64,000 bases of DNA from Alphaproteobacteria bacterium (lineage in GTDB: Bacteria; Pseudomonadota; Alphaproteobacteria; Bin95), in assembly GCA_964291285.2 (NCBI GenBank), contig OZ219786.1:256001-320000 (forward strand), in the 5' to 3' direction. Position 1 is the first letter of the stretch, and each line of letters opens with the position of its first letter. The position numbers were made by a program, and so were the translations under genes. The notes under the pieces were generated by a model, which was given only the letters and a program-made list of their open reading frames with translations, made no database searches and was not told where the DNA came from. This document shows, one piece after another, positions 32,937-37,367 of this stretch.

Positions 32937-34184
32937 TCAGTACCGGTCCCGTGTGAACCGTGTCCACACGGTCGGCTGCATATCGAGATCGGCGGCCAGT
33001 TCGCGCCAGCCGATGCTGCGCGGCCCCGCCGGATCGTCCCGGACCGTCATCTCCAGGCGGCCCCGCGTCCAGCGCCAGGTTCCGTCGAAATGAGGGCCTG
33101 ACACCAGGGTCCCCGCCTCGTCCACCACCGAGAACTTCCCCTCGGGATGGAACACGAAACGCCTGTCCGCATACGCCTCGCCCATGAACGCCAGCGAACG
33201 CGGATAAGGACGCGCGATGAACTCGTCCGTCAGCTGGAACGCCGGATGGCGGTGGCCCGTCGGCAGATACGGAAACGGATAGCCGACCGGATAGCGGAAC
33301 CGGACCCTCGGCCCGTCATGGATCTCGATCCACTCGCCCGCCTCGTCCGCCGTGCGCACGATGTCCCAGTAGCCGTCCGTCATGTTCCAGTGCCCGATCC
33401 GCCAGAGCTCCTCCCGGTCCCCGGCGCGCACATAGGTGAGGCCGATGCGCTTGTAGGTCATCAGCACATTGCCTTCCTGCGCCTCGAGGAAGGCCTCGAC
33501 CTCCGCCTTCGTCGTCGTCGGCCTGCCGCCCGAAGCGCCCAGGCCCGTGCGGCCGGGCGACGTCAACCGCCAACCCGGGAAGTGCCGGACCGGCGCGTCC
33601 GGGTCCTGGCGGCGCAGCTCGTCCATCTTCAGCGAGGTCTGCTTCTCGTTGACCCGGATATGCGCCGGGACCAGGTCCGGACAGGCGTCTGCCAGGGCGC
33701 GCGGCCAGCTGTCCTGGATATGGCCCGGATTGGTGAGGACAGCGCCGCCCTGCCCGTTGACTTCGGTCGCGAGCGTGCCGGTCTCCGGATCGTAGAAATG
33801 GGATGCATACAGCCGCTTCTGCGGGTCGATCTGCCACGCGACTTCGCCGCCGTTTCCCGCCATATGTGTTGACCAGCGGGTCGTGTCGTTGCCCAGCCAT
33901 TGGAACCTGCCGCCCGGGCGGCGGTGCGCGACGCACTCGTAGGCCGTCCCGTCGGCGCCGAAGACCACCCCCTGGACGACATTGCGGAACCGCCCGGTCC
34001 CCTCGACCACCTTCACCCTGTCCGCGAGCAGCCGGTTGTAGAAGTCGGCACTGTAGGGCGTATGGTTGATATAGACCTTGCTGTCGAGCTTGGCCGACTG
34101 CCCGTGCGCCGTGCAGGAGGCCAGCGCCGCGCCCGCAAGCGCCAGCGCCAGCAGTCTCCCTGCCGTGAGGTTCGACGGCTTCAT
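32937..34184 (-). CDS. Lipoprotein of unknown function
   Basis: Lipobox LASC; protein-like composition; ATGA overlap with the desaturase. Confidence 0.75.
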   Translation of the reverse strand: MKPSNLTAGRLLALALAGAALASCTAHGQSAKLDSKVYINHTPYSADFYNRLLADRVKVVEGTGRFRNVVQGVVFGADGTAYECVAHRRPGGRFQWLGNDTTRWSTHMAGNGGEVAWQIDPQKRLYASHFYDPETGTLATEVNGQGGAVLTNPGHIQDSWPRALADACPDLVPAHIRVNEKQTSLKMDELRRQDPDAPVRHFPGWRLTSPGRTGLGASGGRPTTTKAEVEAFLEAQEGNVLMTYKRIGLTYVRAGDREELWRIGHWNMTDGYWDIVRTADEAGEWIEIHDGPRVRFRYPVGYPFPYLPTGHRHPAFQLTDEFIARPYPRSLAFMGEAYADRRFVFHPEGKFSVVDEAGTLVSGPHFDGTWRWTRGRLEMTVRDDPAGPRSIGWRELAADLDMQPTVWTRFTRDRY

Positions 34185-34960
34185 GTCACTGTCTCCCTTC
34201 CGTCTCGCGATGGAGTGCGCCGGGCCCGGATGCGGGCCCCGCAAGAGGCCAGTCCGATCACGAGGCCCGCCATGTCGAGCGTCGGGTGGAACACCGCCCG
34301 GCCCGGCGCGGCGTGATGGTTGTTGTGCCAGCCCTCGCCCCAGGTGAGCAGTGCGACCGCCGGGTTGTTGCGGCTGTCGTCGCCCGTCCGGTGCGGCTGC
34401 GCCCCCCAGCGGTGGCAGGCCATCGTCACCAGCCCGCCCGCCCAGAGCGTCGCCGCCACCGGGACCGCCCAGCCGAAGACCGCCAGACGCCAGTCCAGCA
34501 CCGCCAGCAGCACAGGCCAGCCGAGCGCCAGCGGCAGGTAGTGCCGGTGCAGCCACAGGCCGAACCGGTCGCCGCGCAGCTCGCGCCGGAACGCCGCCCT
34601 GTCCGCCGGCGCGCCGTAGCTCCCGACCAGCAGCGCCCGCCAGCCGAGCCGGCCGGCCGGATGCGGGTCGCCCGCCCGGTCGGCATGGGCGTGATGGCGC
34701 CGGTGCGTCACCGCCCATGCGGGTCCGGTCCCGAAGCAGCCCATCACTCCCAGCAGGTGGAACATCACCACCGCCCGGCGCGGCGCCGCGAAACTCCGGT
34801 GCGCGAAGTAGCGGTGGAACCCGATCGACAGCCCGACGCAGCCGAAGAGGAAATAGCCGGACAGCGCGAGCGCCCACCAGGCGAGACCCGCTTCGGCGAA
34901 CGCCAGCGCCCACAGCGCGACCGCGCCGGTGACGATCTGGACCGCGCCGAAGAACATCAT
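34181..34960 (-). CDS. Delta-9-type membrane fatty-acid desaturase
   Basis: Three His boxes: HRYFAH, HRRHH, GEGWHNNHH. Confidence 0.92.
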   Translation of the reverse strand: MMFFGAVQIVTGAVALWALAFAEAGLAWWALALSGYFLFGCVGLSIGFHRYFAHRSFAAPRRAVVMFHLLGVMGCFGTGPAWAVTHRRHHAHADRAGDPHPAGRLGWRALLVGSYGAPADRAAFRRELRGDRFGLWLHRHYLPLALGWPVLLAVLDWRLAVFGWAVPVAATLWAGGLVTMACHRWGAQPHRTGDDSRNNPAVALLTWGEGWHNNHHAAPGRAVFHPTLDMAGLVIGLASCGARIRARRTPSRDGRETVT

Positions 34961-35523: not shown

Positions 35524-37367
35524 TCCCTGCGCTCCCCGACCCTGAGCGAGACGTCCCAAAACGCCCTCGGGCCATCCTTGCCGACATATTGGCCCTCGCC
35601 GAACACGGTGTTGCCGGCGACGCTTCGCACGACGCCGTCGCTCGTCAGCGCGATGGACCGGATGCCGGCCTCGTCGAGGCTGCGCAACTCGCCCGGATCG
35701 CTCTCGCCGTCCCGGTCGAGGTCCTGCCAGACCCGGAACAGGGCCCACTCCGCATCCTCGGGGTCCAACTGCCCGTCGCCGTCGGTGTCGAAATGGCGGA
35801 GGCCCTCGAGGTCCGTGCGCGCGCCCGGCACATAGGAGACGAAGCTCAACTCGTCATGCGCCGCGATCCGCCCGTCGCCGTCCTTGTCGTAGGCCAGGAA
35901 GCCGTCATCGGCGGCGGCCCAGGCCATGCGGGTGCGATAGCCATCGCCGTTGATGTCGTAGAACGCGGTCGAGTCCTCGAGCGCCACCAGCTCCACCCCG
36001 TCCCCGTCCAGGTCCAGCACGATCGGCTTGGCGCCCCCGCCACCACCATTGTGGCCGCCATTGTTGGCGCTGTCGCCCTTGCCGCTGGAGCCGCAGCAGC
36101 CCACGCTCGGATCCGTGTCGTCGTCGTCGTCTCCGGCCTCGACCCCGTCATTGTCACCATCATGTCCTCCCGGGCTCTCATATTCGGGGCCGGGCAGGAT
36201 GGGATCGGTCGGCGGCGGCTGGATGGGCGTCGGCGTCCTGGGCCCGACCGGAGGCGGATCGGTCGGCCGGGGAGGCGCGCCCGGATCGGGCGTTACCGGA
36301 TCGGGACGCCGCGGTGGGTCCTGCGGCGGAGGCGGAGGAGGCTGGCAGTTGTCCACGTTCCGCACCCACCGCCGGGCCCCGACCAGGCGCCATGTCCGCA
36401 CCACCTCCGCGCCCGGACGGACCTGGAAGTCCCGATACTGCGTGTCCTGCTCGTAATGCGAGGTGCAGCCGCCCGACCACCCCGAGGGGCAGGAGCAGGA
36501 GCCCGTGGTGCGCTGCACCGGCCCCGCATACAGCCGGATCACCGGGTCCGGGAGCGGGTCCGGGGCCGGCGCCTGCGCATACACATGCGGGCAGAGGCCG
36601 CCGGCATGGCGCCACGGGCCGCACTGCGCCCTTGCTCCGAGACCCGCCCGGCGGTCGCAGTCGCGCGGCCAGAGATGCGCCGCGTCCGGCGCCGTCGCCG
36701 CAAGGTCCCGGCCCCGCGCATCGCCCGCCCCGCGAATGTCCGTCGCCTGGATCGGAACACGCCGCGACTCGCGGAAGGTCTCCGTCGCCGAACCCGGACA
36801 GGCCACCGTCCGGAACTCCGTCTCCCAGCGGAACCCCGTCACCGTGCGCGCCGGATCGGCCACCGCCCCCACAAGCCCGACACGATCCTCCCCCAGCGAG
36901 GGAACCGACATGCAGGCCGGCAGCGACGCGTCGGCACGCCCGAGCGCGCCCGCCGCAATGCGCGTGTTCGCCAGGATCACATGCAGCCCCGCCCGGCCGC
37001 CCCGCACCGGCGCCACCTGAACCTCGCGATGGCCCCGGCCCACGCCCTTCAGCTCGTCGCTGGCCGCATGGACCGCCAGCACCCCGCCGCAATAGCGCGC
37101 CGTCAGGCCCCGCTCCGTCCAGGACCCGAGCCACCAGGCGCCGGAGGGCGGGTCCGAGGCGCCGTCCCATTCGCTCCGCCAGAGCCGGGCCGCGTCCGTC
37201 ACGCGGATGCGCTCCCCGACACTCGCGAAGGCGGTCCGGATCGCCGCCGCATGCGCCAGCGCCTCCTGGCGCCGCGTCCGGTCCGGATCGCCCGTCTGCG
37301 CCACAGCGCCGGGCGCGATCGCGGCGAGGGTCAACGCCAGCGCCGCTGCGGTTCCCGCCTGTCTCAT
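35520..37367 (-). CDS. Secreted Cys/Pro-rich protein with C-terminal FrpC-SPM-like Ca-binding module
   Basis: Signal peptide; many Cys; polyproline stalk; KPIVLDLDGDG...DDGFLAYDKDGDG...FRVWQDLDRDGESDPGEL. Confidence 0.8.
   Translation of the reverse strand: MRQAGTAAALALTLAAIAPGAVAQTGDPDRTRRQEALAHAAAIRTAFASVGERIRVTDAARLWRSEWDGASDPPSGAWWLGSWTERGLTARYCGGVLAVHAASDELKGVGRGHREVQVAPVRGGRAGLHVILANTRIAAGALGRADASLPACMSVPSLGEDRVGLVGAVADPARTVTGFRWETEFRTVACPGSATETFRESRRVPIQATDIRGAGDARGRDLAATAPDAAHLWPRDCDRRAGLGARAQCGPWRHAGGLCPHVYAQAPAPDPLPDPVIRLYAGPVQRTTGSCSCPSGWSGGCTSHYEQDTQYRDFQVRPGAEVVRTWRLVGARRWVRNVDNCQPPPPPPQDPPRRPDPVTPDPGAPPRPTDPPPVGPRTPTPIQPPPTDPILPGPEYESPGGHDGDNDGVEAGDDDDDTDPSVGCCGSSGKGDSANNGGHNGGGGGAKPIVLDLDGDGVELVALEDSTAFYDINGDGYRTRMAWAAADDGFLAYDKDGDGRIAAHDELSFVSYVPGARTDLEGLRHFDTDGDGQLDPEDAEWALFRVWQDLDRDGESDPGELRSLDEAGIRSIALTSDGVVRSVAGNTVFGEGQYVGKDGPRAFWDVSLRVGERRE

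Follow-up and report, generated by a model that had tools for sequence, protein, structure and literature searches.

Self-processing modules (SPMs), which have been put to work as a protein-ligation tool (NeissLock), are to our knowledge known only as the Asp-Pro "clip-and-link" devices of large RTX proteins; where RTX proteins are acylated, the modified lysines are preceded by glycine. Kuban et al. 2020 (PMC7078468) describe the SPM as exclusive to large RTX proteins of type I secretion systems (T1SS), with cleavage brought about by the side chain of Asp414, which attacks its own strained Asp-Pro bond. RTX protoxins are, according to part of PMC8339906, acylated on lysine in the cytoplasm by enzymes with a GNAT-like fold, and excerpts of PMC5233953 and PMC7078468 describe a pair, FrpD-FrpC, in which an outer-membrane lipoprotein binds the N-terminal part of an SPM protein encoded in the same operon. 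The subject here is a stretch of 64,000 nucleotides (the window) from an alphaproteobacterial genome (GenBank assembly GCA_964291285.2, contig OZ219786.1, positions 256,001-320,000), in which a type IVb pilus operon carries, between its pilO- and pilP-placed genes, the genes for a secreted protein with an SPM-like tail (X), a GNAT-family protein, an integral-membrane desaturase and a lipoprotein (Y) (Table 1). The tail, the GNAT and the desaturase, or a radical-SAM enzyme in its stead, travel as one module, and relatives of the GNAT lie beside SPM proteins in quite different settings. A literature search, which did not cover supplementary homolog lists (the supplement of PMC12538545 may show non-Asp junctions), returned no description of an SPM in a pilus operon, of an SPM-GNAT pairing, or of a desaturase in a type IVb conjugative pilus operon.

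In general plan the operon is like the thin-pilus operon of R64 and other IncI plasmids. It has a PilN-like secretin, a 430-aa pilO-sized gene, a GspE-type ATPase, a T2SSF-type membrane protein, pilins and a pilV-sized gene, and it lies within an MPF-I transfer region together with a coupling protein (T4CP), a TraJ-like ATPase and DotI/IcmL. It differs in having no pilL or pilM upstream of pilN, and in the separation of pilO from pilP. These two genes had been taken as neighbors in the R64 type of operon by an earlier reading of the window from its letters and open reading frames (ORFs; the sequence-only reading), and they are indeed adjacent on plasmid NZ_CP015161.1, whereas here X, the module, Y and an opposite-strand ORF intervene. 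The four co-oriented genes which that reading had seen between pilO and pilP were all confirmed, as were their ATGA overlaps and the 47 bp between the GNAT stop and the desaturase ATG; a fifth ORF in the interval, on the plus strand, had been overlooked. ATGA overlaps can be read at four junctions: pilN/pilO, pilO/X, X/GNAT and desaturase/Y.

A module nested between two core genes of the pil operon

Twenty copies of the operon, from the host genome and others, were compared. In the host genome (G000) alone the entire MPF-I transfer and pilus region is present four times, as found by tblastn and DNA comparison, at about 257-296 kb of contig C2 (the copy in the window), about 494-533 kb of the same contig, about 50-89 kb of C5 and about 2076-2119 kb of C3. 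Three of them are 95-98% identical in DNA, and the C3 copy is an old, divergent paralog that keeps the order pilN-pilO-X-GNAT-desaturase-Y-pilP. The module is better conserved in this paralog than the pilus genes around it, with identities to the window of 71% for the desaturase, 71% for the SPM tail and 59% for the GNAT, against 35-49% for pilO, pilR, pilV, pilP and pilQ (39% for pilO, 38% for pilR and 35% for pilV). The sequence-only reading had named co-occurrence elsewhere as one of its tests, and this was found: the X tail, GNAT, desaturase and Y stand together in all four host-genome copies and in two other genomes (L041, L042).

All 20 copies have Y and the first ~345 residues of X. Five copies are free of the enzymes (L028, L029, L030, L034 and L035); the last four have the plain order pilN-pilO-X-Y-pilP-pilQ, and in L028 the N-terminal part of X directly precedes Y, with a small opposite-strand ORF between pilO and X. 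By tblastn, residues ~1-345 of X are found between pilO and Y in the enzyme-free operons L029, L030, L034, L035 and L040. Because they occur in operons without the enzymes, Y and the N-terminal part of X belong to the core of this pil-operon lineage, lying between pilO and pilP, and the single four-gene cassette of the sequence-only reading does not hold (L029, L030, L034 and L035 have both without any enzyme). What is nested between them is a three-part module -- the X tail, the GNAT, and a desaturase or radical-SAM enzyme -- that is inherited as a block. In all 12 GNAT-bearing copies X has the SPM tail and a further enzyme is encoded, the desaturase in six and, in its place, the radical-SAM enzyme in the other six; the tail is found in none of the eight copies that lack the GNAT.

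The X family numbers 78-79 members. Where the SPM tail is missing, the protein stops in a short Gly-rich "...GNGGSPP" or else has a terminal CFI-box-CTERM domain (NF041770; 41.2 and 40.8 bits, the cut-off being 40, in L025:12750-14273 and L034:7724-9364), and since the tail-less forms carry these other ends, the C-terminus of X is, to judge from the sequences, a hot spot for alternative endings. For the N-terminal domain the AF2 model has moderate confidence, and Foldseek brought up only LptE-like rows of the PDB at E 0.28-0.8; an LptE-like identity was not adopted, the rows being no better than E 0.28.

Y, a lipoprotein of the outer-membrane type, belongs to a family of 130 members, none of them named; 13 of 16 genomes from the host's genus have it, as does a single genome from a different family. 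Its signal peptide ends in a lipobox (LALALAGAALASC), and Cys24 is kept in at least 90% of 52 homologs. Structure prediction for Y, which the sequence-only reading had suggested, gave a confident fold (AF2 pLDDT 89.1) and no Foldseek match in the PDB at E <= 0.001; against the Protein Atlas the best score was 0.82, under the tool's threshold for meaning. Neither Y nor the pilO-like protein has a tblastn match in the 72,556 plasmids of PLSDB. Y was also considered as a PilL and rejected: hhalign of its profile against E. coli PilL gave a probability of 0.3%, with the lipobox alone aligned. Y and X recall FrpD-FrpC in that a lipoprotein gene and an SPM-protein gene share one operon; unlike that pair, Y also accompanies forms of X without an SPM, and no FrpD structure is among the best 50 VIA-align rows for Y.

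The desaturase matches PF00487 at E 2.1e-14 (54.4 bits against a cut-off of 29.7) and, by phmmer, acyl-CoA desaturase 1 (4ymk) at E 7.8e-13 across the His boxes, which fit the pattern HX4H, HX2HH, HX2HH; desaturase activity is predicted. It shares with the SCD1 family the three His boxes and a membrane topology that can be aligned to 4ymk and 4zyo (E ~8e-13). It differs in being much shorter (259 aa; the solved chains have 318-339 aa), in having no adjacent electron-donor gene that could be seen, and in being confined to the pilus operon, where it is interchangeable with the radical-SAM enzyme. Among 41 related genomes, full-length genes of its subfamily were found only beside Y in pil operons, with fragments elsewhere. 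Such fragments lie away from pilus operons in G000 (C3:869311-869592) and G010 (C2:2612715-2617511). In L043 (10585-11949) only the first ~168 codons of a radical-SAM gene are left, fused to a Y that is missing its first ~150 codons.

The GNAT matches PF00583 at E 4e-9 (37.2 bits against a cut-off of 20.7). The family to which it belongs is tight, with 49 proteins that share identities of 47% or more and that all have PF00583. In a maximum-likelihood tree of 26 GNATs, rooted at the midpoint, those of the pilus operons form one clade (100/99). Nearest to this clade are three alphaproteobacterial GNATs: L049 and L051b, both of T1SS/RTX loci, and L050, which has no SPM-like domain in its locus. 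The six GNATs linked to a radical-SAM enzyme form a clade of their own (96/94) within a grade of desaturase-linked GNATs; with a midpoint root, the order of events that this would imply is a suggestion.

The SPM-like tail of X and its GNAT partner

The label "SPM-like" given to the secreted protein in the sequence-only reading proved correct. Residues 448-602 of X match the self-processing module of FrpC, which is 177 aa long, by phmmer at E 2.8e-24 (6sjw) and 1e-23 (6sjx), and Foldseek aligns the AF2 model of X to 6sjx at E 6.4e-13, with a TM of 0.76 and 36% identity. The mean pLDDT of this model is 69; it is 80-94 over most of the tail and below 50 for residues 357-445, in the linker, which is taken to be disordered. 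The junction reads ...GGGGGAK/PIVLDLDGDG, with Lys447-Pro448 at the position of the canonical scissile Asp. EF-hand-like DxDGDG loops are present in the tail, and no HemolysinCabind match was found in X with Pfam. The tryptophans aligned to W451 and W519 of FrpC, which stack there according to PMC7078468, are both kept (HMMER alignment). FrpC "ELFGD478" aligns to "ELSF" and a gap, and the alignment stops before D579, which together with D478 belongs to the transient fifth Ca site of FrpC, as read from one pairwise alignment. The module start motif was found in 34 of 79 X-family proteins, and here the junction is Lys-Pro in 31, Lys-Gly-Pro in two, Tyr-Pro in one and Asp-Pro in none. In full-length members the length of the tail is fixed at 168-169 aa from the proline to the stop.

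X thus shares with FrpC and ApxIVA a homologous domain, a layout of passenger followed by SPM, and a module that starts at a proline after a flexible segment. It is unlike them in having a lysine before that proline where FrpC has the catalytic Asp, and in showing, in that one pairwise alignment, no counterpart for the "G477-D478" motif. It is also a protein of only 615 aa that lacks RTX repeats, has a predicted Sec signal peptide and belongs to a pilus operon; its module stands at the extreme C-terminus and is genetically coupled to a GNAT.

A scan with the GNAT profile, taking one genome per species, gave 17 loci, eight of them pilus operons and nine not. Seven of the nine hold an SPM-like domain within 10 kb, all of them in T1SS/RTX settings with an ABC transporter, HlyD, TolC and giant cadherin/RTX proteins, and in five of the seven the SPM copy closest to that of X has a GGGxK-P junction. 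The layout of an SPM-ended protein followed by the GNAT recurs in three loci (L051, L055, L139); in L051 and L139 the Lys-Pro module closes a giant protein and the GNAT gene comes next, with an overlap in L051 and after 9 nt in L139. A second sample, of 400 genomes of the phylum, in which the profile matched nine genomes, yielded one TolC-HlyC-GNAT locus with a weak SPM match at the contig edge, three podophage structural modules and, for the rest, less clear-cut contexts.

The reverse test, on an unbiased sample, began from the SPM. Among 400 sampled Alphaproteobacteria, 25 non-self SPM loci were taken with flanks of 10 kb, or as much of this as the contig had, and the GNAT profile (E <= 1e-5) was found near three of four Lys-Pro loci, against none of 21 with other junction residues (one-sided Fisher ~0.002, calculated by hand, a figure that overstates the case since the relatives are non-independent). 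The pairing of the GNAT with the Lys-Pro module is thus seen across contexts, in pilus operons and T1SS loci alike. SPM-like domains as such are far more widespread: they were detected (E <= 1e-5) in 80 of 401 genomes of the phylum, a tally that includes one genome flagged as unpublished (G423), which is used in no other claim, and 20,207 clusters of the representative library match the SPM at E <= 0.001. In the best 29 loci of the phylum sample (30 junctions) Asp-Pro is in the majority, with 18 by script and 19 on reading (L077 being D-P). Among the best 148 library proteins, those closest to the X tail, the junction residue is A in 42, K in 42, P in 36, S in 33 and D in 11. All of the single-module library matches of at least 68% identity in which a junction was found are of the Gly-run-Lys-Pro form (five gave no junction), and matches of this form include proteins of 880-2135 aa with the module near the N-terminus.

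Comparison with the RTX acyltransferases HlyC, CyaC and ApxC shows both likeness and difference. As in those systems, the gene for a cytoplasmic acyltransferase adjoins that of its presumed substrate, a secreted Ca-binding protein; modification is presumed to precede export; the RtxC structure is GNAT-like, according to a portion of PMC8339906; and a glycine stands upstream of the candidate lysine of X. The GNAT of the pilus operon is, however, an ordinary PF00583 protein with a CoA-type motif region and not a PF02794 protein -- it has no PF02794 match at E <= 0.01 in a library that does detect the HlyC genes in L055 and L103 -- and the presumed target is an SPM junction rather than a pore-forming domain. 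The GNAT is not a stand-in for HlyC, because the two enzyme types coexist, side by side, in two T1SS loci (L055:7146-7631 and L103:3920-4453).

Some further features of these loci may be recorded. The RTX protein of L055 and L103 may bear two different modifications. In L053 (15916 and 17392) and L056 (13992 and 15441), giant RTX proteins have tandem SPM-like domains, the first with an Arg-Pro junction and the second with Gly-run-Lys-Lys-Pro, and in L054 an Arg-Pro copy lies near two GNAT genes. In L059, L071/L106, L115/L142 and L135 the SPM-like domain comes right after a Hint/intein-like "...RVHN" C-terminal motif, which would place two different self-processing elements back to back. The podophage relatives of the GNAT (L104, L105 and L108, E 1e-14 to 1e-30) adjoin genes for the portal, the head-tail connector, the nozzle and an SLT-domain internal protein.

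What the module may do

We propose, tentatively, that the GNAT modifies the X tail, probably at the junction lysine, with the desaturase or radical-SAM enzyme acting to tailor the product; the chemistry is one that we infer, and we regard the whole as possible though somewhat short of probable. Before export, the cytoplasmic GNAT, translationally coupled to X, would acylate or acetylate the tail, most likely on the conserved lysine found where canonical modules have their catalytic aspartate, and the desaturase or the radical-SAM enzyme, each of which would attack unactivated C-H bonds, would supply or tailor the transferred chain. After export the SPM-like domain would fold in Ca-rich surroundings, and the modified junction might then serve, at the base of the pilus or where mating cells meet, to anchor X by its C-terminus or to support a new kind of ligation. 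The pair of Lys-Pro SPM and GNAT may have come from RTX proteins of type I secretion, among which it is also seen.

This proposal keeps a part of what the sequence-only reading had put forward, namely that the GNAT transfers a desaturase-tailored acyl chain onto the secreted protein or a pilin, in loose analogy to RTX acylation. Its link between GNAT and secreted protein has gained comparative support across unrelated contexts, while nothing points to a pilin as the target. The analogy turns out closer than "loose", in that the tail is itself an RTX-protein domain and relatives of the GNAT sit in T1SS/RTX loci. As for the acyl chain, the desaturase does recur with the GNAT, in half of the GNAT-bearing copies; it is exchangeable for the radical-SAM enzyme in the other half, and the comparisons fit a long acyl group and an acetyl group alike.

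Several observations weigh against the proposal. Among solved structures the GNAT is closest, at weak E-values, to enzymes that acetylate small molecules, a "probable acetyltransferase" (2eui, E 1.2e-5) and AAC(6') enzymes, and because of these neighbors acetyl transfer or a non-protein substrate would be equally possible. We know of no precedent for a long acyl chain on a Sec substrate. The junction lysine is not invariant, since one X tail reads Tyr-Pro although there is a GNAT from a contig of equal length (P0207); the junction in L055 is Cys-Phe-Pro; two of the nine non-pilus GNAT loci (L050, L052) have no SPM; and no GNAT lies near the Lys-Pro SPMs without a Gly run in L106 and L107, both of the phylum sample, and in L142. 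Members of the GNAT family (L104, L105, at E 1e-27 to 1e-30) occur in podophage structural modules with no SPM nearby and, since members sit there and in other contexts, the family is by this evidence not confined to SPM partners. In the T1SS loci the GNAT is usually without an oxidative partner, only L051 having one, a 2OG-Fe(II) oxygenase encoded after the GNAT; for this reason the link between desaturase and GNAT product is, as far as the comparisons go, weaker than that between GNAT and SPM. Finally, an opposite-strand ORF separates Y from pilP, so that transcription reading through into pilP is a presumption.

A different account, the main rival, which we consider somewhat unlikely and which takes up the membrane-lipid remodeling that the sequence-only reading had offered as its alternative, would make the site between X and Y a permissive one that collects enzymes that make or remodel a hydrophobic molecule -- an isoprenoid, say, an N-acyl amine, or an acyl chain tailored by desaturation or in some other way -- carried by a lipocalin-like Y acting at the pilus base or mating junction, with the X tail no substrate at all. 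In its favor is L025, where the same position (10780-12919, minus strand) is occupied by a polyprenyl (diphosphate) synthase (PF00348, E 3e-65) and a SAM methyltransferase, with no GNAT, desaturase or SPM tail. The desaturase, too, is SCD-like, and members of that family have acyl-CoA or lipids as substrates. A tetraether lipid synthase ranks with the top NCBIfam matches of the radical-SAM alternative (E 1.8e-20, though well short of the cut-off), and the solved relatives of the GNAT, as said, acetylate small molecules. The N-terminal domain of Y (aa 35-220) aligns to lipocalin-like barrels with VIA-align Z scores of 5-7.9 (ToxS 7.9, Blc 6.2, YedD 5.5), a range that the tool calls common for models without a true match. 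Y is, however, present in enzyme-free operons and so is independent of any such product; in these operons the GNAT never occurs without the SPM tail (12 of 12, against none of eight); and it recurs beside Lys-Pro SPMs in T1SS loci that have neither Y nor the desaturase.

The tail might also act alone, as a module that folds or adheres in a Ca-dependent way, or that still cleaves itself, and that helps X outside the cytoplasm, the GNAT and desaturase being tied to it by shared descent from an RTX locus or serving in regulation or self-protection; we think this rather unlikely. The fold of the FrpC module and both structural tryptophans are retained, non-Asp junctions are very common (D in only 11 of the best 148 library proteins), and, as none of the 21 SPM loci with other junctions has the GNAT, such domains can function without it. 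The canonical chemistry, on the other hand, requires the Asp side chain (as given in passages of PMC7078468), and Lys-Pro cannot form the anhydride; the Ca-site motif "ELFGD478" reads "ELSF-" in X in the one pairwise alignment; and the strict co-inheritance of tail and GNAT, which takes in both their start/stop overlap and their retention at 59-71% identity, would not be expected from descent alone. That the module is neutral or selfish cargo, a passenger with no pilus role kept inside the operon of a multi-copy mobile element, is highly improbable: there are four copies of the element in the host genome, the X-Y position is variable and in some operons empty, and broken copies exist (the truncated radical-SAM gene fused to Y in L043, the desaturase remnants), but the module is more strongly conserved than the pilus genes in the divergent paralog, its reading frames are intact with GC3 (G+C at third codon positions) of 0.87-0.91, and the tail is fused in frame to a core protein and always ends 168-169 aa after the proline.

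The proposal that the GNAT modifies the X tail could be extended into a bolder form, which we hold to be decidedly improbable. Lys-Pro SPMs would then be a distinct, enzyme-dependent class of Ca-triggered ligation devices, in which the GNAT charges the junction lysine with an acyl group ahead of export, the desaturase or radical-SAM enzyme of the pilus operons tailors the load, and the folding that Ca brings about outside the cell converts the strained Lys-Pro into a covalent link or lipid anchor; captured from RTX adhesins, such a device would fasten a pilus-associated protein to the donor or recipient envelope in mating. Were the modification real, the populous Lys-Pro branch with its own transferase would be either a second, enzyme-gated chemistry or a fold repurposed without cleavage, and either outcome would change the reading of thousands of annotated "RTX Ca-binding" proteins. 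It would also give the first SPM, and the first lipid-type tailoring enzymes, within a mating-pilus operon, and would point to covalent or lipid-mediated steps in mating-pair formation.

The operon and the rest of the window

The window has a G+C content of 71%. Family profile searches show the MPF-I (IncI/Dot-Icm-like) transfer region to span positions 1 to ~40120, with the coupling protein, the TraJ-type ATPase, DotI/IcmL and the type IVb pilus operon on the minus strand; beyond it lie an IS5-type transposase gene and then ordinary metabolic genes. The order along the minus strand is pilN, the pilO-sized gene, X, GNAT, desaturase, Y, the pilP-placed gene, pilQ, pilR, two pilin genes and the pilV-sized gene. 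The DNA shared among copies of the repeated element stops ~19 bp upstream of the pilN start. In the four genes GC3 equals that of the flanking pil genes, so composition shows no recent import; an origin as a foreign island was rejected on composition, both GC and GC3 being the same as in the neighboring pil genes.

Table 1. Features of the pilus operon in the window (positions are those of the window).
Feature	Position	Strand	Remarks
pilN-like secretin	38653..40101	-	first gene of the operon; TIGR02520 E 7.7e-42, weak Pfam Secretin match
pilO-like gene, 430 aa	37364..38656	-	named from position and size only
X, secreted protein, 615 aa	35520..37367	-	N-terminus like a signal peptide, ending AVA/Q
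X N-terminal core, aa 1-345	36333..37367	-	signal peptide and Cys-rich domain of unknown fold
X linker, aa 346-447	36027..36332	-	Pro-rich, then acidic and Gly-rich; ends GGGGGAK
X SPM-like Ca-binding domain, aa 448-615	35523..36026	-	begins at Pro448
GNAT, 171 aa	35008..35523	-	PF00583; no signal peptide; start overlaps the X stop (ATGA)
SCD-like integral-membrane desaturase, 259 aa	34181..34960	-	PF00487; His boxes HRYFAH, HRRHH, HNNHH
Y, lipoprotein, 415 aa	32937..34184	-	lipobox LASC; two beta-rich domains
Small ORF, 142 aa	32386..32814	+	coiled coil and C-terminal hydrophobic helix; convergent with Y
pilP-like gene	31437..32387	-	positional name; start uncertain, ATG 32387 or GTG 32336
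pilQ-like assembly ATPase	29815..31569	-	ORF coordinates as listed; true start probably further downstream

The pil names used in the sequence-only reading fare unevenly. That of pilN is supported by TIGR02520, though at 143.5 bits, below the curated cut-off of 287.65, and by tblastn to PilN genes annotated on MPF_I plasmids (22% identity across 90% of the length). Those of pilO and pilP are positional, the places of both and the size of pilO agreeing with NZ_CP015161.1: neither protein has a Pfam or NCBIfam match, the pilO-like protein aligns to E. coli PilO2 (431 aa) by BLASTP at E 0.002 across 41 aa only, and no BLASTP similarity was found between the pilP-like protein and E. coli PilP. The pilP-like gene is kept before pilQ in all operon copies. 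PilQ matches Pfam T2SSE at E 4.4e-41 and has GspE/PilB-type matches in NCBIfam, while T2SSF (E 2.8e-4) and Bundlin (E 1.9e-4) were both weak matches in the operon. Two tandem pilin-sized genes (27586-28122 and 28208-28741, minus strand) are 87.6% identical to each other, one of them having the weak Bundlin match. A promoter and terminator scan of 31000-40400 gave no promoter-like and two terminator-like sites, not above shuffled sequences, the scan being uninformative for such GC-rich DNA.

For the 142-aa ORF between Y and the pilP-like gene, whose start abuts the pilP-like start, codon-position GC favors coding on the plus strand. It has no family match, and the divergent C3 copy lacks it. 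In sister operons tblastn picks up relatives with the same placement and orientation, numbering one to three in L042, L044 and L047. A relative is found once between pilO and X (L027/L028), and among the three near-identical copies of the element this ORF is the most variable stretch. At the other end of the window, the last ~145 codons of the stop-to-stop frame of the coupling protein (window 2-1047) match more than 30 places on all five contigs at 88-100% identity, and the other strand there has a DDE transposase frame, which would place a multi-copy insertion sequence against the coupling-protein gene.

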